Shown: positions 1,465 through 51,048 of the stretch, piece after piece | How positions within the stretch are numbered: position 1 is the first letter of the stretch | Layout of the letters: each line of letters starts with the position of its first letter | Origin: Candidatus Fervidifonticultor sextus | GTDB taxonomy: Bacteria; Sysuimicrobiota; Sysuimicrobiia; Sysuimicrobiales; Humicultoraceae | Length of the DNA: 64,000 bases | Assembly: GCA_031459875.1 (NCBI GenBank) | Contig: JAVKHQ010000001.1 | Coordinates: forward strand, 247,718-311,717 | Direction: 5' to 3' | Position numbers and translations under genes: made by a program | Notes under the pieces: model-generated | What the model saw: the letters and a program-made list of their open reading frames with translations, nothing else | Databases searched by the model: none | What the model was told of the DNA's origin: nothing

Positions 1465-3699
1465 TCACTCCTTTACCGAATATCCGGGGCGTCCGGCTTC
1501 CTGTGGAGCGGACGCGCCCGTCCTTCCGCTTGAATTCGGTGCGGGGGCTCCCCCTGCCTCCAGACGGACCAGCCGGCTGAAGTCGGCAATCTGCAGGAAC
1601 GTAGCGGTGATCTCGCGCAGCAGCGCCAGGCGGTTCCCCCGGACCGCCGGCGCGGGGGCCATGACCAGCACCTCGTCGAAGAACCGGTCGATCGGGTCGG
1701 CCAGCTGCGCCAGGATTTCGAGGGCCTCCATGTAGCGGCGCTCGCGCTCACCCGCCCCCTCCCGCGTCCCCGCCGCCTCCGGGACCAACGCCCGGGCGAT
1801 CTCCGCGTTGGCGTGCTGCCACGCCTGGTAGAGCGCCACTTCGGCCGGCTCGGTCAGTTTCGACTCGTCCACCGCCGGAGCCGGAGCGCCCTGGCCGAGA
1901 ATCCGCGAGGCGCGTGCGAACCCCGTGGCCAGCCGGGCCATGACCGGATCCCCGCGCATCCGGTGCAGCGCGCGGACGCGGGCGGCCAGATCCGTCACCC
2001 GGTCGCCGCGGGTCGCGAAGACGGCATCTACCGCATCGTAGGCCATCCCCTGGTCGAGCAGCGACCCGCGGAACCGCTGTAGCACGAACTCTGCGCAGGC
2101 GCGCGCCATCGGGCCCCCGGTCTCTGCGGGGGCCTCGAAGGTCCCCACCGCGGTGGTGAAGAGGTCGCCCAGTCCTACCGGCAGATCGTGTGCCAGCAGC
2201 ACGGCGGCGATCCCCGAGGCCGCGCGGCGCAGGCCGTAGGGGTCCTGGGACCCGGTCGGCTCCAGGCCGGCCAGCAGCGCGCCCGCCAGCAGCACGGCCC
2301 GATCGGCCACGGCCAGCAGCGCGCCCGCCAGCGTCTGTGGAGGCGTCCCGCCCGCCGCCTTCGGCCAGTAGTGCTGCTCGACGGCGCTGGCCACGTCTGC
2401 GGGTTCGCCCCGCTCCAGCGCGTAGATCCGCCCCATGGTGCCCTGGAGGTCGGGGAACTCGCGGACCATGGCGGTCACCAGGTCCGCCTTGCACAGGCGC
2501 GCCGCCCGCTCGACCGTCTGCCGCCCCGTCTCGTCCAGTCCGACGACCCCGGCCAGCCAGGCTGCGACGCGCTCGAGGCGCCGGACGTGGTCGGCCATGG
2601 AGCCGAGCCCCTCGACGTGCGCCAGACGGGCCAGTTCGCCGATCCACGCATCAAAGTGGCTCCGGCGGTCCTCCTCGAGGAAGAACCGGGCGTCTTCGAG
2701 CCTGGCCCGCACCACCCACTCGTGGCCGGTCCGCACCGAGTCCAGGTGCGCGGTGCCGCCGTCGCGGACCGCGATGAAGGCGGGCAGCAGATCACCCGCC
2801 GGACTCTCGACCCCGAAGCACTTCTGGTGGTGTTGCAGGGTGACCAGCACCACCTCGCGGGGGAGTGCCGCGGACAGCGCCGGGTCGAAGGTGCCGAGCA
2901 GCGGCGTGGGATGCTCGGTGGACCAGACGAGTTCGTCCAGCAGCGCCTCGTCCAGGACCGGTCGCCCGCCGACGCCGCCGGCCAGGGCGCCGGCGCCGTC
3001 GGCGATGCGCCTGCGGCGCTGCTCGGGATCCAGCAGCACGTGGGCCCGTCGGATGGCCGCCGGGTACGCCCTGGCCCCCCGGACCGTCACCGGGCCGGGG
3101 GCGAGGAACCGATGGCCTCGGGTCCGTCGGCCCGCCCTCACCCCGGCCACCGCCAGGGGAATGAGGCGGTCGCCCAACAGGGCCACGACCCACCGGATGG
3201 GCCGTCCGAAGCGGAAGCCGTGAGATGCCCACCGCATGCTCTTGGGAAACGAGAGGCCCGCGATCACGCGCGGCAGGATCTCGGCCAGGACCACGTAGGA
3301 GGGACGGCCGGCCTCCCTGACCTCGGCGGTCACATAGCGGCCCCCCTCGAGGTCCCGAACCTTCAGAGCCTCCACCGCCACCCCCTGCGATCGGGCGAAT
3401 CCCACCGCGGCCTGCGTCGGCGCACCGGCCGCATCGTAGGCGATCCGGGCGGCGGGTCCGCGCACGATGGTCAGACGGTCAGCCTGGCGGGACGCCACGC
3501 CCTCGGCCATCAGGACCAGCCGGCGCACGGTGCCGGTGGTCTGTACCGCCCCCGCTGCGATGCGCGCCTCGCGCAGCGCCGCGCGTGTCTCCCGCGCCAA
3601 CTGCTCCAGCACCGGTGCCACCGAGCCGGGCGGGAGCTCCTCGGTCCCGATCTCGACGAGCAGGGCGGCCGGCGCGCCCGACACGCGGCGCCTAGGCAA
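1465..3699 (-). CDS. glyS: Glycine--tRNA ligase beta subunit
   Basis: [46 protein letters not shown] motifs; TTG start at 3699 behind GGAGG, overlapping the glyQ stop (start uncertain). Confidence 0.95.
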
Positions 3700-4606
3700 C
3701 GCCCCCGCCTCCGGCGGGCTCGCCCCCTGACTGGCGGACCGGCGGTGCACCCTGCTGCAGGTACGCCACCGCCGCCCCCCGCGCCAGCGCCCGGATCCGG
3801 CCCATCAGTTCCACGCGCTGCGTCACGCTGACGGCGCCGCGCGCGTCCAGCAGGTTGAACAGGTGCGAGCACTTCAGCACGGCGTCGTAGGCCGGCAGGA
3901 CGAGCGGGATCTCCAGCAGCCGACGCGCCTCGGCCTCGTGGGCCTCGAACAGCCTCCGCAGCGCCTCCGGATCGCCGTACTCGAATCCATACGTCGAGTG
4001 CTGTCGCTCTTCGTCCCTCCGCAGGGAACCGTAGGTCACGCCGGGCGCCCACTCCACCTCGAAGACCGACGTCTTGCGCTGGAGGTACATCGCCAGCCGC
4101 TCCAGGCCGTAGGTGAGCTCGACCGAGACCGGGTCCAGGTCCAGCCCGCCCATCTGCTGGAAATACGTGAACTGCGTGATCTCCTGGCCGTCCAGAAAGA
4201 CCTGCCACCCGACACCCCACGCCCCGAGGGTCGGCGCCTCCCAGTCGTCCTCCAGAAAGCGCACGTCGTGGTGCTCCAGGACCAGGCCCAGACGCTCCAG
4301 GCTCTTCAGGTAGAGGTCTTGAACGTCGTCGGGCGCCGGCTTGAGGATCACCTGATACTGGTAGTGTTTGTAGAGCCGGTTGGGATTCTCCCCGTAGCGG
4401 CCGTCGGCGGGTCGGCGGCTGGGCTGCACGTAGGCGACCCGCCAGGGCTGGGGCCCGAGCGTGCGCAGGAACGTGGCCGGGTGGAACGTACCGGCGCCCA
4501 CCTCCACATCGTAGGCTTCTTCCAGCACGCAGCCCTGACCGGCCCAGAACCGGTCCAGGGCCAGGATCGTGTCTTGAAAGGTCAGGACCTTGTCGCGTTT
4601 AGGCAT
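3692..4606 (-). CDS. glyQ: Glycine--tRNA ligase alpha subunit
   Basis: [60 protein letters not shown]. Confidence 0.97.
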
Positions 4607-4623
4607 CGGTCGCGAACCGTGCA

Positions 4624-4850
4624 CACAACAAAAGAGCGCCGTCTCAGGGACGGGCGCTCCGCGGTTCCACCCTGATTCCCGCGGCACGCCTCGCACCGCG
4701 GGCTCTCGCTCCGCGCTCTCGGGCGGATCCCGGCAGGGGCATTGACCTGCGGCTTGGGAGCGCCGTTCACCGCGCCCCGCGCCCGTTCCCACCACCCACG
4801 GGCTCTCTCAAGCGGTTTGGCGGCTACTCCTCTCCCGCATCGCCGTGCGT
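4624..4850 (-). ncRNA. Glycine T-box riboswitch leader of glyQS
   Basis: Minus strand: AGTAG box, GAGAG bulge/GGTG loop, specifier GAA-C-GGC (Gly, 4762-4764), T-box AATCAGGGTGGAACCGCG (4660-4677), then terminator hairpin with U tract. Confidence 0.92.
4626..4659 (-). terminator. T-box terminator hairpin (glyQS)
   Basis: GAGCGCC-CGTC-CCTGA-GACG-GCGCTC followed by TTTTGTTG. Confidence 0.8.
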
Positions 4851-4865
4851 GATACAGCCTGGGCC

Positions 4866-4894
4866 ATTCTAGCAACCGGGACCGGCGCGGTCAA
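4866..4894 (-). promoter_or_regulatory. sigma70 promoter of glyQS leader
   Basis: TTGACC-17 bp-TAGAAT with TG extension. Confidence 0.75.
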
Positions 4895-5121
4895 CGCGCA
4901 AGCGACGCCCAGGGGCACACTCACGAGCGGCGCACTCTGGTTCGCTCGCAGAGGGGCGTCTCGAATCTCGTTCATCGCCTGTTTCCAAGCCACCCGCCGT
5001 TCCGGGAGCGCCCCCTGGCTGCGCAGGCGTCCCGGCCGCGGTTCGAGATCCACCACCGGCTGGTGACGCAGCGAGCTCAACAGCGCTTGCCGCCACATCG
5101 CCGTGTGCGGTCATCAATTGG

Positions 5122-5874
5122 TCAAGACCGGCCCCGTTGAAGAACAGCCTGCGTCTGCCGCGTGAGACGCATGCCCAGATCGTGCAGGTCGCGGAAGCCT
5201 TCCGGCGACGGGAGGTTAATCTCGCTGGCCAAAAGCCGCAGATTCGGGCCTCCGGCCCAGACTCGGAGAGATCCGCCCTGGTTGGCATGCCACCGTTTGA
5301 TCACAGCGATGACCTCATCTGACACAATCTCCAGTGCCACACGGGCATCGTCGGCGAACACGCGGTAGCCTTCCGGAAGCCTTCCGACGGCTGTGGTCAC
5401 CTCTCGTGCGGTCCGGGCAAAGGCGATGACAGGCGGAAGCCGAACCGCGGTCCTCTGTCCGGCTGCGACGGGCCAGGACCCGGGAGTGACGCCTGCTGTG
5501 GGATCAACATCAAGTCGGTACCCGGACCCGGCCAGCCAGCCCCACGCCGACTCGCTCGTCTTGATATCGTTGCCGACGATCGCGAGCACATGTTCCGAGC
5601 GCACCGAGTCGGTCGTCCAAATCAACGTCGTGCGGCGGGGTGTCTCGGCGTCGTCCACACTGACGACACGAAGCGTCCACTCGACGCCGTCCGTGGCGCC
5701 CGCGTACCGGGCGACCTCGCCCTCTCGGAACGGCTCTGTGACCCGTCCGCCCATGGCAAGGGCCCGTGCCGCGTGTATGGTATGCTCCTTCCCCCGGGTC
5801 GCGCCTCTCCATCGCGCCAGCATGATCACGGCGATGACGACGACAATGAGAATTTCTACCAGCCCGAGCGACAC
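5122..5874 (-). CDS. Hypothetical protein with N-terminal membrane anchor; last gene of island operon
   Basis: GTG start, VSLGLVEILIVVVIAVIMLARWR (one TM followed by basic residues), then ~225 aa soluble domain; no recognised motif. Confidence 0.65.
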   Translation of the reverse strand: MSLGLVEILIVVVIAVIMLARWRGATRGKEHTIHAARALAMGGRVTEPFREGEVARYAGATDGVEWTLRVVSVDDAETPRRTTLIWTTDSVRSEHVLAIVGNDIKTSESAWGWLAGSGYRLDVDPTAGVTPGSWPVAAGQRTAVRLPPVIAFARTAREVTTAVGRLPEGYRVFADDARVALEIVSDEVIAVIKRWHANQGGSLRVWAGGPNLRLLASEINLPSPEGFRDLHDLGMRLTRQTQAVLQRGRS

Positions 5875-5918
5875 GCCAGAACGGCCACGGCGACCCTCAT
5901 TCTGGATGCCGGCCCGTA

Positions 5919-7145
5919 CTACCGCCCGGTCACGACGGTGATCGACGAACCCGGGCTTCCGGCACCAGGAGGAGTAATCGGGGACGGTGTCTGCCACGGT
6001 CCAACGGCCCAGTTCGTGGCGATGGCACCGTCGGACCCTTGGTAGAAGACGTGCAACTGGTCACGGCGCAACACGGCTGCAAGACGGGATCCGGCCCCGG
6101 CCGCACCCGCCGGCGTGATAGCGAAAGGCTTCGCCCACGGCCCGACGGCCCATGTCGTTGCGATCGCGCCGTCGCGAGCGATGTAGAACACGTGGAGTTG
6201 GTCGCCGCCACGGACCACGGCCGCCAGCGGCGAGTCCCCACGGGCTGCGCCGGGCGGGGTGATAGGGAACGGACTTGCCCAGGAGTGCTGACCATCCTTC
6301 CAGGTCGTCGCGACCGCGCTGTCGGGGCGCACGAAGAACACGTGAAGCTGGTCGTTCCCACGGGTCAGCACCGCAATCGGCGTCTGCGGGTTTCCCACAC
6401 CGGGCGGAACAATCGGCTGCCGCCCTGTCGTCTTCTGGAGGGGGTTGACAGGGCGGCAGCTCAGGATGTCGATAGACCAGTCCTCAACGAGTGCGCCGTC
6501 GACGGCCTGGTAGAACACGCTCCACCCGCAGGGGTTCGGGATGAAGGCCAAGCCGGAACCGTTCCCCACCGAGCTGGCCGAAACGACTTCCAAAGCATAC
6601 ACATGAGAGGCCGTGGCGGTCACGGGCTGCTCATCCATACCTGCGACTGAGTTGCGCGGGGTGACGAAGAATATCCAGCCGCGGCGGCCCCACTTGGCAG
6701 CCGTCAGCGGTGAGTCGCCGCGCACGAGGCCAACCTGTGTAATGGCGTTCGCTCTCCACTGGCGACCGACCTGCATCGCGCTCCCAATCGCGCCGTCGGG
6801 CTGGACGTAGAAGGCTTGCAAGAAGCCCTGTTCGTTGACCGCCGCGGCGATTGGCGAGTTTGGCCTCCCCGCGCCGGGCGGGGCAATCTGGGACGGCGTG
6901 CTCCATGGCCCCACGGCCCAGTTCATGCCCAGGGCACCGTTGGGGGCCTGATAGAAGACGTCGAGTTCGTCAGGGTTCCTGGTCAGGGTGCGCTCGATAC
7001 GACCTCCCGGGAGGCCAGGCGCGGCCGCCGCAGCAATGACCGTCGCATCCGTGCTCTTCTTCGCCATCCCCGCCGGAGAGAGCAGTATCGAGGTCACGAC
7101 AAGAGCGACTACCCCGATCTTCATGGCGCCGGCTTGGAGGAGCAT
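5919..7145 (-). CDS. Secreted 7-repeat beta-propeller protein (fucose-lectin/PLL-like repeats), paralog 3
   Basis: AAAGGAG RBS before ATG 7145, signal peptide, seven repeats of consensus QLHVFYxxxDGAIATxWxxGPWxxPxxITPPGAxxxxSPLAAV. Confidence 0.8.
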   Translation of the reverse strand: MLLQAGAMKIGVVALVVTSILLSPAGMAKKSTDATVIAAAAAPGLPGGRIERTLTRNPDELDVFYQAPNGALGMNWAVGPWSTPSQIAPPGAGRPNSPIAAAVNEQGFLQAFYVQPDGAIGSAMQVGRQWRANAITQVGLVRGDSPLTAAKWGRRGWIFFVTPRNSVAGMDEQPVTATASHVYALEVVSASSVGNGSGLAFIPNPCGWSVFYQAVDGALVEDWSIDILSCRPVNPLQKTTGRQPIVPPGVGNPQTPIAVLTRGNDQLHVFFVRPDSAVATTWKDGQHSWASPFPITPPGAARGDSPLAAVVRGGDQLHVFYIARDGAIATTWAVGPWAKPFAITPAGAAGAGSRLAAVLRRDQLHVFYQGSDGAIATNWAVGPWQTPSPITPPGAGSPGSSITVVTGR

Positions 7146-7159
7146 CGGCGACTCTCCTT

Positions 7160-8419
7160 TCACTTGCCCGTCACCGCGACAATCGGGGAGCCTGAGCTTC
7201 CCGCTCCCGGCGGCGTGATGGGCAAGGGCGTCTGCCACGGTCCCGATGGATACGGCAGCGGCGCCACGGCCCAGGTCGTCGCCAGCGCTCCGTCGGGCCC
7301 CTGGTAGAAAACGTGCAACTGGTCGTCGCGGTGCTCGACCGCTGCTATCCGGGAGCCTCGCCCGGCCGCGCCCGGCGGCGTGATGAGGAAGGGCGTCCGC
7401 CAGGGATACAGTGGTCCGATTATCACATTGGCCCTCACCATCGAGGTCGTCGCCAGGGAGCCATCGGAACTCACATAGAAGACGTGGATCACCTCGTCGC
7501 GATGAATGGCCGCTGCTAGCGGCGAATCGCCGCGAGATGCGCCAGGCGGTGTGATTGTGACCGGCGCAATACGGAAGAGCTCGTCAGTTCCATACGTCGT
7601 TGCGACAGCGTTGTCGGGCTGCACAAAGAAGACGTGGACCTGGGTATTGTTGCGGGTTAGCGACGCGATCGGCGACCGCGGAGCCGCCACAAACGGTGGG
7701 GCGATTTGGACTGGCGACTGCCATCCCGGCGCTGCCACGCGTGGTGCAAATCGGGCCCCCACCGGCACAAAGAAAACGTCCACGATCGCTCCGGTGGTCG
7801 TCTGGTAGAACACGTGCCACTCGTTGTTGCGGCGCAGGGCCGCGGCAAGATCGGTGCCGTTGCCCGCCGAGCCGGCCGGCGTGATCGCCTCAGCGGTCAC
7901 GTGGGGGATCGCATCGGTCACCAGGCCCGCGAATATCCTCGAGACTGAGCCGTTCGGGGCGACGAAGAACACGCTGATCTCCCTGCCGAGCCTGACGGCT
8001 GCCAGCGGCGAGTCGACGCGCACGAGGCCGGGCTGTGTGATGGCGCTCGCCCTCCACCGGCCACCGCCGACCTGCATCACGCTCCCAATCGCGCCGTCGG
8101 GCTGGACGTAGAAGGCCTGAAACATGCCCTCCCTGTTGATCGCAGCAGCGATGGGCGAGTCCGGCCTCGCCTCGCCGCGCGGCGTAATCGACGTGGGCGC
8201 AAACCATGGCCCCCCCACTGTCGAGTTCGTGGCGAGCGAGCCATCAGGTCCCCGATAGAAGACGCGACGTTCATCGGGGCCTGGAGCCAGGTTGCGGCCG
8301 AGCCCCCGGGGCTCGAGACCGGGCTGAGTCACGGCGGCTCGGATTGCGCCCCCCTGCGCGGCGACCAAAGCCCAGAAGAGCATGGAGGTCACAGCGAGCA
8401 GACGCACCCCGGTCTTCAT
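7160..8419 (-). CDS. Secreted 7-repeat beta-propeller protein (fucose-lectin/PLL-like repeats), paralog 2
   Basis: ATGA overlap with upstream stop at 8416-8419; signal peptide MKTGVRLLAVTSMLFWALVAAQG; seven repeats with loop insertions. Confidence 0.8.
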   Translation of the reverse strand: MKTGVRLLAVTSMLFWALVAAQGGAIRAAVTQPGLEPRGLGRNLAPGPDERRVFYRGPDGSLATNSTVGGPWFAPTSITPRGEARPDSPIAAAINREGMFQAFYVQPDGAIGSVMQVGGGRWRASAITQPGLVRVDSPLAAVRLGREISVFFVAPNGSVSRIFAGLVTDAIPHVTAEAITPAGSAGNGTDLAAALRRNNEWHVFYQTTTGAIVDVFFVPVGARFAPRVAAPGWQSPVQIAPPFVAAPRSPIASLTRNNTQVHVFFVQPDNAVATTYGTDELFRIAPVTITPPGASRGDSPLAAAIHRDEVIHVFYVSSDGSLATTSMVRANVIIGPLYPWRTPFLITPPGAAGRGSRIAAVEHRDDQLHVFYQGPDGALATTWAVAPLPYPSGPWQTPLPITPPGAGSSGSPIVAVTGK

Positions 8420-10701
8420 CGGCCCGTCACCGCGACGATCGGCGAGCCCGGGCTTCCCGCGCCTGGCGGCGTGATCGGGAAGGGCGTCTGCCACGGACCC
8501 ACCGCCCAGTTCGTGGCGATGGTACCATCGGAGCCCTGGTAGAACACGTGCAACTGATCACGGCGCACGACAGCACCGAGGCCGGATCTCGGCCCGGCCG
8601 CGCCCGGCGGCGTAATGGCAAAAGGCTTCGCCCACGGCCCGACGGCCCAGTTCGTCGCCAGGGCCCCGTCGGGGCCGATATAGAAGATGTGCAACTGGTC
8701 GCCGCCGCGAACAACGGCGGCGAGCGGTGAATCGTTTCGAGCTGCGCCCGGCGGGGTAATGGGGAACGGCGCGGCCCAGGGACGGTCGGCGCTCCACGTG
8801 GTCGCGACGGCGCCATCAGGCCCGATGTAGAAAGCATGAAGTTGGCCCGCGCGGAGCGCAACCGCGATCGGCGAGCCGGAACGTCCTGCTCCCGGCGGCG
8901 TGATCGGGAACGGCCGCTGCCACGGTCCTACCGCCCAGTTCGTGGCAATGGCGCCGTCGGGCCCCTGGTAGAACACATGCAACTGGTCGGGTCCTCGCAG
9001 GACTGCCCGCAACTGAGACCCGGGCCCGGCGGCACCGGATGGCGTGATCGGGAAGGGCGTCTGCCACGACCCGACGGCCCAGTTGGTCGCCACGGCGCCG
9101 TCTGGGGCGATGTAGAAGACATGGAGTTGGTCGCCGCCGCGGACAACAGCAGCCAGGGGCGAATCTGCACGAGCCGTGCCCGGCGGCGTGATGGCGACCG
9201 GAGCCGTCCACGGACGGCGAGGGTCACTCCAGGTCGTCGCGATCGCGCCGTCGGGCTGGACGAAGAACGCGTGGATCTGCGCTCCACGGTTCACGACGGT
9301 TATCGGCGTGTTCGGCCGTCCCGCGCCGGGCGGCGTGACCGGCTCAGGCGTCTGCCAGGGCCCGACGGCCCAGTTTGTGGCGATCGCGCCGTCACGCCCC
9401 TGGTAAAAGACGTGAAGCTCATCCGGACTCCCGGCCACGTTGCGCTCGAGTCTACCGCTGAACGGGCCGGGGCGGGCCACGGCCTCGCTGGTGATCCACT
9501 CAATCCTCACGCTCGTCGCACCTGGATTGAAGGTCCCAACCCGGATCGTGGTGCGGGTCATGCTGCCGTCGTGCCACCGCAGCGTCGGCGTCGTAGTCCT
9601 GCTGCCCCAGAGCATGTTGCCGCCTCGCCGGAGCGTCGGCGCGGCTTCAAGGTACACCCCAAGATGATTGCCCTCACCGCCGGTGAGGTTGGGAACCGTG
9701 GCGGGATTCTTGTCGCGGTCGTGAAGCACATGCCAGATGGCCACACCCTCGCCGCACACGTTCCGGTCGTAGTGGAACCCCGGTTGCCCTGGCGCGCGGT
9801 ACTCCACGATGAAGTACTCGTTCGGGCCCCGCGCCGGATCGTAGAGGATCACCGCCGAGTCCGTGGCCACATTGTTCGCCTGCAGGGTCTCGCTCCCTGA
9901 AGCCGCCAGCGAGCGGATGCGAGGCTCCGCCCAGCCGAGTTGGAGCTTGTGCCACGGATCGAGGTGGACCGATTCGCGCCCGTCGGCGCCTCCGATCATC
10001 GGCCCCATCAATGTACAGCCTGCGTTGAGATTGTCGTTCGTCCCCCAGCGACCATAGAGATCCTTGGTGCCAAGGAAGTGACTCAGTTCGTGAGCGAGCA
10101 GAAACAGATTCGGCCGGTCCCCGACCAGCAGAACTGTCACGCACACTGAGACAGACGAACTGCCTGCCTTGATGCAGGCCGGATCAGTCCCTCTCGCGGC
10201 CCCGCTAGGGTAGCTCTCGATGATGAGAACCGCGAGCTCGCTTGCGGTCACTCTCCCGTCCCTGTTCGCGTCGAACGGCGCGAAGTCGAACCCGGACATC
10301 ACCGCAGCCTCGATGACTCGCGCCGGCCGCTTGTTGTCGTTGGTCTCCTGGCCCACGGCCGCTGGGAGTTGAAGGGGACCGATAATCCCTTGACCCGCAC
10401 GCGACCAGAAGAAGCGCCCTCTCGAGTTCTCGAGGAAGTAGCCGTTCACGCTCGGGGGGCGCAACTGGTTGAAGACCAGTTCGTCGTAGAAGGCGTTGGT
10501 GTGAGCCAGCGGCGGCCGGCCCGCGTACTGTGCCGTGATCACGAGCAGGGAAACGCTTGAAGGCGGCTTCATCTTCTCGTGCCCGAAGTCGCGCAGTGTG
10601 AACTCAGGCGCACCTTCTGCGGGCACGAGCGCGAGCACGAGCGCGGCCGCGACGACGAGGGCGAGGGCCCAGATCTTCGTGAAGACCGCTTTCTGAGACA
10701 T
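8416..10701 (-). CDS. Secreted M6 (immune inhibitor A-like) zinc metalloprotease fused to a C-terminal 7-repeat lectin-like beta-propeller
   Basis: Signal peptide; YFLENSRG, FDANRDG (Ca-loop-like), HELSHFLGTKDLY (HExxHxxGxxD), Met-turn LMG, HLDPWHKLQLGW, EYFIVEYR; seven C-terminal repeats (about 8416-9425). Confidence 0.85.
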   Translation of the reverse strand: MSQKAVFTKIWALALVVAAALVLALVPAEGAPEFTLRDFGHEKMKPPSSVSLLVITAQYAGRPPLAHTNAFYDELVFNQLRPPSVNGYFLENSRGRFFWSRAGQGIIGPLQLPAAVGQETNDNKRPARVIEAAVMSGFDFAPFDANRDGRVTASELAVLIIESYPSGAARGTDPACIKAGSSSVSVCVTVLLVGDRPNLFLLAHELSHFLGTKDLYGRWGTNDNLNAGCTLMGPMIGGADGRESVHLDPWHKLQLGWAEPRIRSLAASGSETLQANNVATDSAVILYDPARGPNEYFIVEYRAPGQPGFHYDRNVCGEGVAIWHVLHDRDKNPATVPNLTGGEGNHLGVYLEAAPTLRRGGNMLWGSRTTTPTLRWHDGSMTRTTIRVGTFNPGATSVRIEWITSEAVARPGPFSGRLERNVAGSPDELHVFYQGRDGAIATNWAVGPWQTPEPVTPPGAGRPNTPITVVNRGAQIHAFFVQPDGAIATTWSDPRRPWTAPVAITPPGTARADSPLAAVVRGGDQLHVFYIAPDGAVATNWAVGSWQTPFPITPSGAAGPGSQLRAVLRGPDQLHVFYQGPDGAIATNWAVGPWQRPFPITPPGAGRSGSPIAVALRAGQLHAFYIGPDGAVATTWSADRPWAAPFPITPPGAARNDSPLAAVVRGGDQLHIFYIGPDGALATNWAVGPWAKPFAITPPGAAGPRSGLGAVVRRDQLHVFYQGSDGTIATNWAVGPWQTPFPITPPGAGSPGSPIVAVTGR

Positions 10702-10816
10702 GGCGACTGTCTGGCCTTCGTGTGAGGTGCGCCGCGAGGGGTCGATCAAGGGCGAAGGCAAACGAGCGCTCCTGGGCGATCGCCGCGACTGGCTGGACCA
10801 GGGGGCCGAAGGCATT

Positions 10817-11194
10817 CTAACGCCCAAGGAATAGCGCGGCAGGCCCGCTAATGCTCGTGCTGGGGCCCCCGATCGTGCGGATCGGCGCGACGTTCCCGTT
10901 CGCGCCGGGGGCGAAGACCGTCACGGTGTTGGTAGCAAGGTTGGTCACATAGATGTTCCCGGCCGTGTCCTGTTCGACGTCCCGGGGGGTGCTGAGACCC
11001 GTATTCGCGCCGCCGATCGTCCGAACCGGGGGTGCGTTCCCGCTCGCCATCGCGTCGTACACGGTTATCGTACTGGGGAGGGAATTGGCAACGTAAAGCA
11101 TGGTGGCGCTTGGAACCTGGAGCGTCACCAAACCACACGCCGAGGCCAGAAGTGCGCTTACGGCCAGCAGGGTTACCCTGCGCATCTTGCCCAT
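10817..11194 (-). CDS. Small lipoprotein with two NHL-like repeats
   Basis: MGKMRRVTLLAVSALLASA-C lipobox; two ~48-aa repeats LYVAN..TITVY..GNAPPVRTIGG / IYVTN..TVTVF..GNVAPIRTIGG; alternative starts 11185 and 11212. Confidence 0.75.
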   Translation of the reverse strand: MGKMRRVTLLAVSALLASACGLVTLQVPSATMLYVANSLPSTITVYDAMASGNAPPVRTIGGANTGLSTPRDVEQDTAGNIYVTNLATNTVTVFAPGANGNVAPIRTIGGPSTSISGPAALFLGR

Positions 11195-11233
11195 GGGCTC
11201 ACCACCCCCCATCGGGTCCTTTTCACTGAGAGG

Positions 11234-11280
11234 AGCATAGGATGCTGCGGCGGCTGGTGCATCGCCCGGTTCGGGCCATT
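11234..11280 (-). promoter_or_regulatory. Putative activator box (copy 1) plus -10 of effector operon
   Basis: AATGGCCCGAACCGGGCGATGC (11259-11280), 19 bp, TATGCT (11234-11239); box identical to 14252-14273. Confidence 0.7.
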
Positions 11281-11309
11281 CTCCCCAGGAGGGGACGGGC
11301 GGGCGAGCG

Positions 11310-13964
11310 TCAGACGATACCCAGTTCGTGCGCGCGCAGCGTCGCCTCGTGGCGCGATCCCACGCCCAGCTTGTCGTAGATGTTGGCGACGTGGCGCTTC
11401 GACGTGTGCGGACTGATGGTGAGCGCTGCGGCGATCCTGGAGACACTCGCGCCGAGGGCCAGCAGGCGCAGGACCTCGATTTCACGTTCGGTCAGGTTCG
11501 CGGGATGCGTCTGAGGCACCCGCTGCCCGTCCTCGGCCAGGTCGACGGCGACGTTGTCCGGCAGGCGCCGCCCCTCTGCCCACAGGCTGGCGAACCTGAC
11601 TCCACCAAGCGCAGCCTTCGCCAACTGCTCTGCGCGCTGAATGCACGACCGTTCTTGAGGAAACGCGATCGCCCCGGTCCGTTCGCGAATGGAGGACGCA
11701 GCCGCGAGCAGCAGTGCCACGCGCGCGTGATCCTGTTGCGCTGAGGCGATCCAGGCGAATCGTTCCAGACATCGGGCGAGGCCATGACGGCGGCCGACCC
11801 TGACAAAGAACCCTGATGCTTCCCGCAACATCGATGCCGCCTGCTGATGCTTCCCGACCTTGATGGCGACCTCCGCCGCCGACACCAGAGCCTGCGCCGC
11901 CAGTCCCTCATGCCCCGACGAGCGGGCAGTCTCCAGCGCCTGGGCGAGCAGATCGCTGGCGGCCAAGGGGTCCCCGCGGTCTGCCGCAACACCTCCCAGT
12001 TCGACCTGCGTCAGAAACACCCACCTCGTAGCCCCGCAGGTGTGCGCGAGGCTCAGGGCACTGTCCAACAGGGACGCCGCGCGTGCCAAGTCACCCTGAT
12101 GCCTGGCCAGACGGCCGAGGCCCCAGGTCGCCTGCGCCACGCCAAGCGCGTCGCCAAGCCGTCGCCGGAGGGCCAGACTCTCTTCGTACAGAGCGGTCGC
12201 ACGGCCAAAGTCCGCGAGATCGACCGCGATCGCGGCCAGGGTCTGCAGCACCCGAGCCACGCTCCCAGGCGGACCCGTCCGGCGGAGGATCCGAAGGCTC
12301 TCGGTATTCAGGTCGGCGCTTCGCCGGAGATGTCCGCGGAGGGACGCCAGGAATCCCAGATGGTGCAGGCACAGCGCCGCACCCCGTTCGTCGCCCGCCT
12401 CGCGCATCAGCCCAAGCGCCTCGCCCCACGCGCGCTCGGCAGCTTCGTACTCGCCCTGTTCGAGCCTGATGCTGGCAAGGAGGCTCAGGGCGTGCGCAAC
12501 GGCCCGGCGGTCGTCGTGTTTCCGGAAAAGGGCCAGGCTGTCCACGAGGGCGCCTTCTGACTCCCTGAGGTCCCCGTGACGATGAAGCAGCACGGCGGTG
12601 GCAAACAGGGCACTCCCGCGCACCGCGTCGGGTGCCGCCTTGTCGGCGTCCAGGAGGCTCGTCAGCCACCGCGAGCCGGCAGCGAACTGGCCTCGGAGTT
12701 CCCAGTAGGGCAGTAGCGCCGTGGCCATCCGAAGGCCTCCCACGGTGTCTCCGCTGTCGCGAAAACCCTCGAGGGCCGCCCGCAGGTTGTCGTATTCGAG
12801 ATCGAGACTCGTCGCCACCTCAGCCTGCCGGGGACCGTTCATCTCGTGCCCGGCCTGCTCGGCCATGGCCAGGAAGAACCCTCGATGCCGCCGGAAGACC
12901 TCGGCAGCCTCATCGGCTTGCAGAAGCCATTCGCGCCCACGGGCTCGGACGGCGGCGGGCAGCCGACATCGGATCTGTCCGTCGCGGACCTCGCGAACCG
13001 CGAGTGACTGATCCACAAACTCGCCGATCATCTCCAGGATATCCGAGGGGCCGATCACGCCGCCAGCGCAGACGGTCTCCGCAGCGGTGATGGTCCAGCC
13101 GCCCGCAAACGCCGTAAGTCGCCGCAGCAGGACCCGTTCCTTGGCCGAGAGCAGGCTGAACCGCCACTCCAGCGTGTCAGGCGGCCCGCCGAGTGGAGGC
13201 GCCGCATGGCCGGAAACGGACAGCCTCGCTCCCGCGGCCAGTCGCGCGTCGATCTCCTGCACGGACATGAACCGACACCACGCTGCGGCGAACTCGATCG
13301 CAAGCGGCACGCCGTCAAGCCGGCGGCAGATCCGCGCCACCGTCTCGCCGTTCTCGACTGTCAGCCGGAAGGCAGGCAGCGCGACCGCCGCTCGCTCGGC
13401 AAACAAGCGGACCGCCTCGTGCGACAGCAGGCTCATGGTCGTGACATGGAGAAACTCCGTGGGTGGAACCGAGAGCGGCGCAAGACTGTAGGTGTGTTCC
13501 TCTGCAAGACCGAGGCTCAGCCGGCTGGACGCGAGCACACGAAGATCGGTCGTCTCACCAAGCACGTCGCCAACGATGTCCGCGCAGGCCGCCGCCCAGT
13601 GCTCGCAGTTCTCAAGCACGAGCAGCGCCGTTCGGGGGCGCAGGAACGCCTTGAGCACCAGGCGAGACGCTCTTCCCGGTTCGTCGCGCAGGCCGATCGC
13701 CGCACAAAGCGCCTCAGGAATTGAGTCGGGGGCGGACAGCGCGCTCAGGTCCACCCACCACACGCCGTCGGTATACCGATCGGTCATGCGGCTGGCTACT
13801 TCGAGCGCCAGCCGCGCCTTGCCAACTCCAGGAGGCCCGATCAGGGTGACCAGCCGGGATGCCGTCAGAAGGTCACAGATTTCCCGAATCTCACGGTCTC
13901 GCCCGACGAAGCTCGTCAAGTAGGTGGGTAGGTTGTGGTTGGAAACTCTGATCCGGCCCGGCAT
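11310..13964 (-). CDS. LuxR-family transcriptional regulator with N-terminal STAND/NB-ARC-like ATPase and TPR repeats
   Basis: NLPTYLTSFVGRDRE, GPPGVGKARLA, LLVLENCEH, ICRRLDGVPLAIE, F.GGW, TPR array, C-terminal LTEREIEVLRLLALG..IAAALTISPHT.KRHVANIYDKLGV.SR. Confidence 0.92.
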   Translation of the reverse strand: MPGRIRVSNHNLPTYLTSFVGRDREIREICDLLTASRLVTLIGPPGVGKARLALEVASRMTDRYTDGVWWVDLSALSAPDSIPEALCAAIGLRDEPGRASRLVLKAFLRPRTALLVLENCEHWAAACADIVGDVLGETTDLRVLASSRLSLGLAEEHTYSLAPLSVPPTEFLHVTTMSLLSHEAVRLFAERAAVALPAFRLTVENGETVARICRRLDGVPLAIEFAAAWCRFMSVQEIDARLAAGARLSVSGHAAPPLGGPPDTLEWRFSLLSAKERVLLRRLTAFAGGWTITAAETVCAGGVIGPSDILEMIGEFVDQSLAVREVRDGQIRCRLPAAVRARGREWLLQADEAAEVFRRHRGFFLAMAEQAGHEMNGPRQAEVATSLDLEYDNLRAALEGFRDSGDTVGGLRMATALLPYWELRGQFAAGSRWLTSLLDADKAAPDAVRGSALFATAVLLHRHGDLRESEGALVDSLALFRKHDDRRAVAHALSLLASIRLEQGEYEAAERAWGEALGLMREAGDERGAALCLHHLGFLASLRGHLRRSADLNTESLRILRRTGPPGSVARVLQTLAAIAVDLADFGRATALYEESLALRRRLGDALGVAQATWGLGRLARHQGDLARAASLLDSALSLAHTCGATRWVFLTQVELGGVAADRGDPLAASDLLAQALETARSSGHEGLAAQALVSAAEVAIKVGKHQQAASMLREASGFFVRVGRRHGLARCLERFAWIASAQQDHARVALLLAAASSIRERTGAIAFPQERSCIQRAEQLAKAALGGVRFASLWAEGRRLPDNVAVDLAEDGQRVPQTHPANLTEREIEVLRLLALGASVSRIAAALTISPHTSKRHVANIYDKLGVGSRHEATLRAHELGIV

Positions 13965-14018
13965 ACCGCGACCCCGCTGATTTCGTAGGTCTACTACGCC
14001 GCGGCGCCGACTCCTTCA

Positions 14019-14216
14019 TCAGCGAGGGCGAGGACGCTCGGGCGCGTTCGCCACCCTGAAAAGAAAGCGCACGAGGCTGCGGGGCCCGGAGAACTCGAAT
14101 GTCTGTTGCGTGGCTGCGTTGGTGACAGACCCGCACCACGTCGGTCGACTGCGGTCGGGTGCGCGCACCTCCCTCCACAGGCGCACGATGAACACTCGCT
14201 GGTCCACGCGGTACAT
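14019..14216 (-). CDS. Small hypothetical protein (65 aa, FIVRLWRE...WxGxV...FxxxxxLxxFL pattern)
   Basis: MYRVDQRVFIVRLWREVRAPDRSRPTWCGSVTNAATQQTFEFSGPRSLVRFL; starts 11 nt after the putative -10, directly upstream of the regulator. Confidence 0.6.
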   Translation of the reverse strand: MYRVDQRVFIVRLWREVRAPDRSRPTWCGSVTNAATQQTFEFSGPRSLVRFLFRVANAPERPRPR

Positions 14217-14226
14217 CGTGCCGTGA

Positions 14227-14273
14227 AGCATGCGCCCCCACGGTCGTCGGCGCATCGCCCGGTTCGGGCCATT
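14227..14273 (-). promoter_or_regulatory. Putative activator box (copy 2) plus -10 of small-protein/regulator unit
   Basis: AATGGCCCGAACCGGGCGATGC (14252-14273), 19 bp, CATGCT (14227-14232). Confidence 0.7.
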
Positions 14274-14769
14274 TGACCATGGACCGCCATCGCGACCGAA
14301 CGAGTTCCTCGCGATTGAGGCCCAGCAGCCGCGGGCCGCCGATGACGGGGTATTGCGCCAGATCCTGTCCGCCACAAGCGGCGTGGCCTTGGGGCGAGCA
14401 CGAGCACCCAGAGGTCGTGGGGGTTGCCGGTTGGTACGGACCAACGCTGAACGGAGCAAAAACGGATGTTTTGCTCCATGCTGTGGGGAAGGGGACGTAC
14501 CATCAGGGGAAGTGCACTGTTTGGCCTCGCGCCAGGCGCGGACCCGTTCAGGCCCCGCTTGGGTTCCTCTCAAGGGCGACCTCAGGCCCCGCTGTGGCAC
14601 TCCAGCCGCTGGAAGGCGCCCAGCAGAGCCTTGAGCTCCTCTGCGGGTAGCTCACCGAGGATCTCCAGCAGGACCGTCCGCTGGGTAGCGGGGAAAATCA
14701 GGATCCAGGCAGAACCGCTCGTCCCCTGGGGGATGTCGCGCGCATTGCAAACCCGGGGAGGTGGACGAC

Positions 14770-15024
14770 CTACCCGATGCCCAGCGGCTCCTCTTCGCGC
14801 TGACGGCGGCGGATGGACGGCGCCGGCATGGACGCGATCAGGGCCGCCGCGGCAAAGGCCACCAACCCGGCGACCGCCCAGGAGGCCGGGAGCTCAATGA
14901 CCTCGGTCTCGGTCTTGACGCGCACCGTGGATCCGGGCCCGATGCGGACGACGCCGCGCGCTTCGGCGAGCGCGGCGCCAAGCTCGATGATGGCGCGACG
15001 CATCCGGTCGAGGTCGATCTCCAT
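14770..15024 (-). CDS. Small membrane protein downstream of recO (possibly DUF4342-like)
   Basis: GGAGGTG RBS, ATG 15024; VRVKTETEVIELPASWAVAGLV.. with one hydrophobic segment; family call tentative. Confidence 0.6.
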   Translation of the reverse strand: MEIDLDRMRRAIIELGAALAEARGVVRIGPGSTVRVKTETEVIELPASWAVAGLVAFAAAALIASMPAPSIRRRQREEEPLGIG

Positions 15025-50100: not shown

Positions 50101-51048
50101 CTACCGGGGGATTCCGTCCACGTAGATGGCCGAAGGAAAGAGGAACTGCAGCGCCCCGCTGCCCATGCCGCCCAGGGTCGTCCACCCGGCGCCGGACATG
50201 TTGTCCATCCGGATGATCCGGTGGGCCTCATCGGTCACGTAGATGCGTCCGGCGCCGTCGAGGAAGAGCCCGGTGGGGAAGGTCAACAGGCTGGGGCCCC
50301 CGTCCGAGGCGCTGAACGTCGTCCACCCGGCTCCGGTCATGTCGTTGATGCGCACGATGCGCTCGTTGCTGGAATCCGTCACGTAGATACGGCCGTCGCG
50401 GTCCACGGCCACGCCCGCCGGGAACTCGAACTGCCCGGGGCCACCTCCCTTCCGGCCGAAGGCGACCCACCCGGCACCGCTCATGTCGTCCACGCGCACG
50501 ATCCGGTCGTTGAGGGCGTCGGCGATGTAGAGGCGACCCGCCCCGTCGAGGAACAGGCCCTGGGGAAAGTTGAACTGGCGGGGGCCGCTCCCGCGGCTGC
50601 CCAGCGCCGTCCAGCCCGCCCCGGTCATGTCGTTGATGCGGACGATGCGGTGGTTGGTCGCATCGGCCACGTAGATGCGGCCCGCGCCGTCCGTGGCGAT
50701 GCCGACCGGGAACCCGAACTCGCCCGGACCGACGCCCCTCCGGCCGAAGGCCACCCACCCGGCGCCGCTCATGTCGTCCACGCGCACGATCCTGAAATGC
50801 GCCGGATCGGTGGCGTAGATGCGGCCGGCCCGATCGAGGGTGATCCCGGACTGGAAGGCGAAGGTTCGGCCTCCGGCATCGCGATGGCGCAGCACCGTCC
50901 AGCCGGCGCCCGACATGTCGCTGATGCGGAGGATGCGCTCGTTGCCCGCATCGTTGACGTAGATGGCACTGCGGACGGCCTGGGCCAGCAGCGGCCAGGG
51001 GGCCGCCGACGCGACCGCGAGGAGCACGAACGCGATGCCCCGCGCCAT
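50101..51048 (-). CDS. Secreted six-repeat NHL beta-propeller protein
   Basis: Signal peptide; six ~48-aa repeats RIYVxDxxNxRIVRxxDMxGAGWxxxGxxGxGxxQFxFPxGxxxD. Confidence 0.88.
   Translation of the reverse strand: MARGIAFVLLAVASAAPWPLLAQAVRSAIYVNDAGNERILRISDMSGAGWTVLRHRDAGGRTFAFQSGITLDRAGRIYATDPAHFRIVRVDDMSGAGWVAFGRRGVGPGEFGFPVGIATDGAGRIYVADATNHRIVRINDMTGAGWTALGSRGSGPRQFNFPQGLFLDGAGRLYIADALNDRIVRVDDMSGAGWVAFGRKGGGPGQFEFPAGVAVDRDGRIYVTDSSNERIVRINDMTGAGWTTFSASDGGPSLLTFPTGLFLDGAGRIYVTDEAHRIIRMDNMSGAGWTTLGGMGSGALQFLFPSAIYVDGIPR

Follow-up and report, generated by a model that had tools for sequence, protein, structure and literature searches.

An identical 22-bp dyad precedes two putative promoters around a LuxR-type STAND regulator gene in Candidatus Fervidifonticultor sextus

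In a 64,000-nt stretch of the Candidatus Fervidifonticultor sextus genome (contig JAVKHQ010000001.1, positions 247,718 to 311,717; the window, in whose coordinates positions are given), we identified a 22-bp box on the minus strand, AATGGCCCGAACCGGGCGATGC, that is present in exactly two copies, at 11259-11280 (box 1) and 14252-14273 (box 2). The boxes flank the only gene in the genome that combines a STAND NTPase, TPR repeats and a LuxR-type helix-turn-helix (HTH). With moderate confidence, we propose that the box is the dyad operator of this regulator, which would act at two factor-dependent promoters and control its own expression, most likely by activation. The locus was compared with that of Ca. 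Fervidifonticultor quartus, a member of the same genus in the phylum Ca. Sysuimicrobiota that is represented by a metagenome-assembled genome (G001). The boxes and the hexamers that follow them are:

14252..14273, minus strand: box 2, the upstream copy, before the small open reading frame (ORF) and the regulator gene; exact match, identical at the orthologous place in G001.
14227..14232, minus strand: −10-like hexamer CATGCT, separated from box 2 by 19 nt and from the small-ORF ATG by 10 nt, read directly; same hexamer and spacing in G001.
11259..11280, minus strand: box 1, the downstream copy, 29 nt past the regulator stop codon and before the protease/lectin genes; exact match, with one change in G001.
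11234..11239, minus strand: −10-like hexamer TATGCT, 19 nt after box 1, read directly; TACGCT at an equal 19-nt spacing in G001.

Both copies are exact and contain the GCCCG-AAC-CGGGC dyad, as described in an earlier sequence-only reading of this DNA. The dyad is imperfect (AT-n-GCCCG-nnn-CGGGC-n-AT, with 7 of 9 symmetric pairs about the central base by direct reading), and its length falls within the ∼18-22 bp of a lux-box-like inverted repeat. If one mismatch is allowed, the repeat reaches 25 nt. In 100 dinucleotide shuffles, no match to the 22-mer was seen, even with 3 mismatches permitted. Across the source genome (G000; 3.05 Mb, 70% GC, 67 contigs, 96% complete), there were 2 copies at ≤4 mismatches, 5 sites at 5 and 93 at 6, and of 60 GCCCG-N3-CGGGC cores, the two boxes alone had the degenerate form of the dyad. 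A scan with ATGGCCCGAANCGGGCGATG over one genome per species (185,579 species) returned 16 stretches, two of which are overlapping views of the single G001 contig that carries both copies. The remaining 14 are single matches in unrelated phyla, all inside open frames of at least 132 amino acids, the majority of which are likely coding, and no LuxR HTH was found within 4 kb of them. The earlier reading had named a dispersed genome-wide repeat unrelated to promoters as the outcome that would speak against an operator. The genome-wide scan did not give this result: a dispersed repeat of the repetitive extragenic palindrome (REP) or miniature inverted-repeat transposable element (MITE) type is ruled out, since only two copies exist in 3.05 Mb and the 14 matches elsewhere lie within long open frames.

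The box pair is the sole isolated exact 22-mer repeat in the window and consists of a single 22-mer. Most of the other exact 22-mer repeats are in regions of lectin and propeller genes, at 5919-10827 and in a 288-nt propeller repeat (50477/50765), and a further pair lies at 2268/2310. At 50477-50483 and 50765-50771, exact repeats of at least 22 nt, 288 nt apart, fall in an apparent propeller-repeat coding region on the minus strand. No further box copies or half-site arrays were found in 10500-14800. A 15-nt core match elsewhere in the genome (C16:32882) is within a 526-amino-acid open frame, does not have the AT flanks and was taken as chance. On the plus strand, a 13/15 inverted match to the box core at 11016-11030, inside the coding region of a small gene downstream of box 1 (P0001), is probably also chance.

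The position of the boxes is promoter-like. The exact 19-nt spacing to TATGCT and CATGCT was confirmed at both boxes (spacers at 11240-11258 for box 1 and 14233-14251 for box 2, by direct reading), and all four sites in the two genomes conform to box-N19-[T/C]A[T/C]GCT. The earlier reading was also right that neither site has a TTGACA-like −35, since the would-be elements at 17-nt spacing are ATGCAC and ATGCGC, with 2 of 6 matches each. By direct reading, the box promoters reach ∼5-6 of 12 positions against the TTGACA/TATAAT consensus, and no sigma-70 consensus promoter was found in 10600-14800. Upstream of tRNA genes, 26 of 52 regions scored at least 9/12 against TTGACA-N16-19-TATAAT, compared with 1 of 500 random 90-mers; the housekeeping promoter of this organism is therefore canonical. 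The tRNA genes of G000 have near-consensus TTGACA-N17/18-TATAAT promoters that usually end 7-13 nt before the mature tRNA. The lack of a consensus promoter in 10600-14800 is as would be expected for factor-dependent promoters. Taking the conserved hexamer as the −10 element would place the box at −53 to −32, with the dyad centre at −43.

The locus and its G001 counterpart are collinear, with 81-84% nucleotide identity across the regulator and protease genes, and both G001 boxes are at orthologous places; the upstream box is exact and the downstream box has one change, at the dyad centre (AAC to AAA). Thus, 43 of 44 box positions are identical, compared with 293 of 460 (63.7%) four-fold degenerate sites in the regulator gene (binomial P ∼6e-8 given this neutral identity). 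Purifying selection, we conclude, acts on both boxes and on the distance from box to hexamer. At box 1, the surroundings cannot be aligned between the species (709 nt here versus ∼250 nt there) and the spacers share just 5 of 19 bases. The G001 box 1 is nevertheless followed exactly 19 nt on by TACGCT (a TAnnnT-type hexamer), which is itself 19 nt before the ATG of the protease gene. P0001 is absent from G001, where the box-1 promoter lies directly before the protease-gene orthologue. As the P0001 stretch is found only in the genome under study, where P0001 is the first gene behind box 1, the box-1 promoter has a different first gene in each species. The 709 nt at 10602-11312, which include P0001, correspond to ∼250 nt in G001 and in a contig from run X3, and the protease signal peptides cannot be aligned. 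Together, these results support the view that the box is a cis element under selection, arranged as at a promoter.

Of 61 related genomes (G000 counted), four contained the box within 3 mismatches, with two copies each in G000 and G001. Single 3-mismatch matches in G012 and G017 were read as chance, because both fall in long open frames that have no LuxR HTH close by; a reversed control pattern matched once. The genes associated with the boxes are:

14019..14216, minus strand: ORF of 65 amino acids, the first gene behind box 2 (MYRVDQRVFIVRLW...); 79% identical in G001; homologues begin MYRVDQ; no Pfam/NCBIfam family.
11310..13964, minus strand: regulator of 884 amino acids with a P-loop STAND NTPase (AAA_16/NB-ARC-like), a TPR region and a C-terminal GerE/LuxR HTH, from Pfam; G001 orthologue 79% identical.
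10817..11194, minus strand: P0001, a lipoprotein-like fragment of 125 amino acids with YVTN/lactonase-type propeller repeats, from its translation and weak Pfam and NCBIfam matches; absent from G001.
8416..10701, minus strand: secreted M6-like metalloprotease domain fused to a beta-propeller lectin, from NCBIfam, with a HELSH motif.
5919..8494, minus strand: two more beta-propeller lectin genes downstream (NCBIfam beta_propeller_lectin, ∼1e-36 each), on the same strand and tightly packed.

The regulator has the organisation of LAL/STAND LuxR-family proteins, with an N-terminal P-loop NTPase, a helical-repeat sensor and a C-terminal GerE HTH in one chain (Pfam matches TPR_12, 2.4e-22; GerE, 1.2e-14, residues 823-877; AAA_16, 3.9e-08, residues 19-96). 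By tblastn, no other STAND-TPR protein in the genome has a LuxR/GerE HTH; two long paralogues end without one. The HTH is identical to that of G001 at 55 of 65 positions and the stretch SPHT(S/A)KRHVANIY, which we take to be the recognition helix as placed in GerE-family structures, is kept. Among 35 relatives, an orthologue of the regulator was found only in G001; the remaining matches are paralogues of ≤42% identity, which occur in 31 of the 35 genomes (a tally that includes the unpublished G013, whose sequence supports no claim made here). A metagenome scan recovered 31 loci and no orthologue, with the best long matches 25-30% identical.

The sequence-only reading had placed the box before both the regulator and its targets. 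This stands for box 1, which starts 29 nt beyond the regulator stop codon and precedes the protease/lectin genes. Box 2 does not precede the regulator directly: the small ORF comes first, with its ATG 35 nt from the box, and ∼290 nt lie between the box and the regulator ATG (13964) further downstream. The main target is likely the protease/lectin fusion gene (NCBIfam beta_propeller_lectin, 8.1e-56; M6dom_TIGR03296, 4.2e-22; both under curated cut-offs), and the two downstream lectin genes are possibly in one operon with it.

The boxes travel with these genes. Of the 6 genomes of the genus, 2 have the full set of small ORF, regulator orthologue, protease gene and boxes; the other four are 84-98% complete. 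In the window this module spans ∼5114-14331 and in G001 it spans 2373-9857 of locus L007, and the genomic surroundings differ between the two species. Synteny with G001 stops 58 nt upstream of box 2 (14331) and, on the far side, beyond the lectin genes. The module (boxes, small ORF, regulator and protease/lectin genes) therefore behaves as an accessory unit with its own cis sites and looks like an accessory island. Its presence in 2 of 6 genomes in differing surroundings, with the site nowhere else, suggests that the factor reading the box is carried by the module. Between box 2 and the end of synteny, 14274-14331 is a remnant, the last ∼19 codons of a gene for a PhnD-like substrate-binding protein that is present in full in G001 (L007 9813-10772). 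From the synteny end at 14331, it follows that a rearrangement cut the PhnD-like gene and spared the box-2 promoter.

We propose that the 884-amino-acid regulator binds the imperfect dyad AT-n-GCCCG-nnn-CGGGC-n-AT through its C-terminal LuxR/GerE-type HTH, acting as a dimer. With the hexamer as the −10 element, the dyad would be centred near −43 and occupy the place of the missing −35, where the bound regulator would most likely recruit RNA polymerase to two intrinsically weak promoters. The box-2 promoter would drive the 65-amino-acid ORF and the regulator itself, resulting in autoregulation, and the box-1 promoter would drive the secreted protease/lectin genes. The binding protein, activation as opposed to repression and the transcription starts, predicted by the sequence-only reading near 11227 and 14220, are what we infer from the arrangement of the locus, with activation the favoured mode. 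The earlier reading saw in the locus a positive feedback loop, which might be bistable.

The proposed arrangement has parallels in characterised systems. The lux box is a 20-bp inverted repeat centred at −42.5 (PMC3376562). Class II promoters of the LuxR-TraR type, with operators centred near −41 to −43, are similar in having a ∼20-bp dyad and a GerE-family HTH regulator. If the conserved hexamer is a true −10, the dyad here, near −43 relative to the inferred start, would likewise overlap the −35 region of a promoter that has no good −35. Unlike LuxR and TraR, the regulator described here does not have an autoinducer-binding domain, and its sensor is a STAND NTPase with TPR repeats. The dyad also differs from lux and tra boxes: it is centred on a base (a 3-nt centre), is GC-rich and is unrelated in sequence. 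SCO6993 of Streptomyces coelicolor, a LAL protein, likewise combines a P-loop NTPase with a C-terminal LuxR HTH, and it is reported to bind palindromes in its own and target promoters and to repress them (PMC9628970). As described there, the SCO6993 sites have no common consensus and are repressing, whereas the two sites here are identical and their geometry suggests activation; the organism also belongs to an uncultured phylum, Ca. Sysuimicrobiota. The Escherichia coli MalT protein has the same order of NTPase, helical-repeat sensor and LuxR HTH, and the regulator matches MalT models weakly (TPR_MalT at 1.3e-10, below the cut-off, and the MalT HTH). In the module described here each promoter has one dyad, and one of the two dyads precedes the operon of the regulator itself, whereas malT is not known to be autoregulated through MalT boxes.

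Several observations weigh against the proposed operator. Promoters controlled by MalT, which has been studied more than any other STAND-LuxR protein, each carry several asymmetric 10-bp MalT boxes and not one dyad, and the promoters described here do not have this MalT-type architecture. The GC-rich half-sites are unusually near each other, with 5 bases between CCC and GGG, and the −10-like hexamers match TATAAT at 3-4 of 6 positions, with CATGCT missing the first T. Conservation was measured against one comparator species, G001. Since the flanks of box 2 are themselves ∼74-80% identical to G001, with 14 of 19 spacer bases shared and CATGCT kept, the footprint at box 2 is weaker. In both species, an ATG within box 2 and another within CATGCT are in frame with the small ORF. 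Box 2 could thus have a coding or start-codon reading; box 1 in G001 could not. In the reading frame upstream of the small-ORF ATG, only non-synonymous changes separate the two species by direct reading, and therefore the ATGs inside the box and CATGCT are probably not used as starts.

A further point against activation is that a box overlying the −35 position suits a repressor equally well. The same regulator could bind the same site and block the −35 region of its own and the protease/lectin promoters, to be released once its NTPase/TPR part senses a signal, and repression through palindromes in own and target promoters is described for the LAL-type protein SCO6993 (PMC9628970). We regard repression as unlikely, though a serious candidate, because the box promoters, with no recognisable −35 and weak −10 hexamers in a genome whose housekeeping promoters are canonical, are very weak and leave little to repress. 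The box could instead be read by another factor, such as an extracytoplasmic function (ECF)-type sigma factor that takes GAACC for its −35, some other transcription factor, or the 65-amino-acid protein, for which no function is known. The non-canonical box promoters fit this idea, as does CGAACC in the box together with a CG that all four spacers share, 19 nt past AAC. This spacing is longer than the 16-17 of ECF promoters, and the 22 conserved positions in dyad form go far beyond the need of a 5-7-nt −35 element. Moreover, no sigma gene was seen among the module ORFs, and a host-wide factor should have further sites, of which none were found in the genome; recognition by such a factor is improbable. 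A sigma-54 promoter fits by eye (GG-N10-GC, as TGGC...N...GGGC) but was rejected, because the sigma-54 DNA-binding domain (PF04552), which was detected in 4 control genomes, had no match in this 96%-complete genome, and thus no rpoN was found.

Readings in which the box does not act as a binding site at a promoter fared worse. As an RNA-level element, GCCCG-AAC-CGGGC would act as a hairpin in the transcript, forming the 3′ end of the upstream gene, stabilising it, or structuring a 5′ leader. In G001, each box is indeed shortly past the stop codon of a co-directional gene and the single substitution falls in the loop, leaving the stem intact. However, the stem is just 5 bp and folding is not better than in shuffled sequences (z of −1.1 and −1.2; 27 and 26 of 200 shuffles fold as well), there is no T-run or terminator call at either box, and the unpaired flanks AATG and GATGC are conserved as much as the stem. 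The gene upstream of box 2 has been lost in this genome and the box kept, and the fixed spacing to the downstream hexamer would not be explained; an RNA-level role is very unlikely. An intrinsic terminator or stable hairpin likewise found no support (no terminator call, no T-run, stability not above shuffles). The sequence-only reading had also suggested that the direct repeats could let recombination excise the regulator cassette. They do bracket a 3-kb unit and could be a recombination site or duplication scar marking the ends of an inserted small ORF and regulator cassette, and synteny with G001 is lost both 58 nt upstream of box 2 and immediately past the box-1 hexamer. Yet with neutral divergence at 36%, a scar evolving neutrally would not have kept 43 of 44 positions identical, the 3-kb unit has no recombinase gene among its Pfam/NCBIfam matches, and G001 retains the same arrangement. 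Excision found no support, as no contig in 4 DNA runs joins the boxes, although rare variants may be lost from contigs, and G001 retains both copies with the cassette between them. The sole relevant joint in these runs is a G001-like form that skips 10602-11312 and has 255 other letters between. We consider this explanation the least probable, with almost no chance of being correct.

The small ORF behind box 2 is a real gene, given 79% identity with conservative substitutions in G001 and a start shared by two more homologues, which begin at the same MYRVDQRVFIVR. These homologues, P0006 and P0007, are 65% and 62% identical, and just 3 of 1.84 billion representative proteins belong to the close family. 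Neither Pfam nor NCBIfam had a matching family, and the Atlas lists only unnamed small proteins. The protein was modelled as three strands and one helix (pLDDT 80); Foldseek gave no match at E <= 0.001 with this model, and its best VIA Z of 4.9 is uninformative. Across 34 genomes of the taxonomic family and 94 of the phylum, G000 and G001 alone had close matches. Three genomes of the same taxonomic family (G005, G011 and G014) have more distant relatives, which share the motif FTLRVW...EWRG...F...LVEFL, and those in G011 and G005 adjoin protease genes (PrsW-type, trypsin-like), not STAND regulators. The ORF has no Shine-Dalgarno sequence and its ATG is 10 nt past the −10-like hexamer, so its mRNA would be almost leaderless. 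It is conceivable, but quite doubtful, that the locus is a three-part switch in which the 65-amino-acid protein is a partner or ligand of the TPR sensor of the regulator, by analogy with peptide-sensing TPR regulators. A predicted complex of the two proteins scored 0.00, which carries no weight either way.

If such a three-part switch exists, its loop would place both the sensor and its modulator under autoregulation and would also govern a set of secreted protease/lectin genes, in a thermophile phylum that is uncultured. An autoregulated LuxR/LAL-type regulator with a dyad operator is a textbook architecture, which would here be present in an uncultured hot-spring bacterium. Stranded metatranscriptome reads from Sysuimicrobiota enrichments have been described (PMC11604079). 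The putative operator, promoters and regulator would be among the few testable regulatory predictions for Ca. Sysuimicrobiota (CSP1-3), a phylum without genetics.

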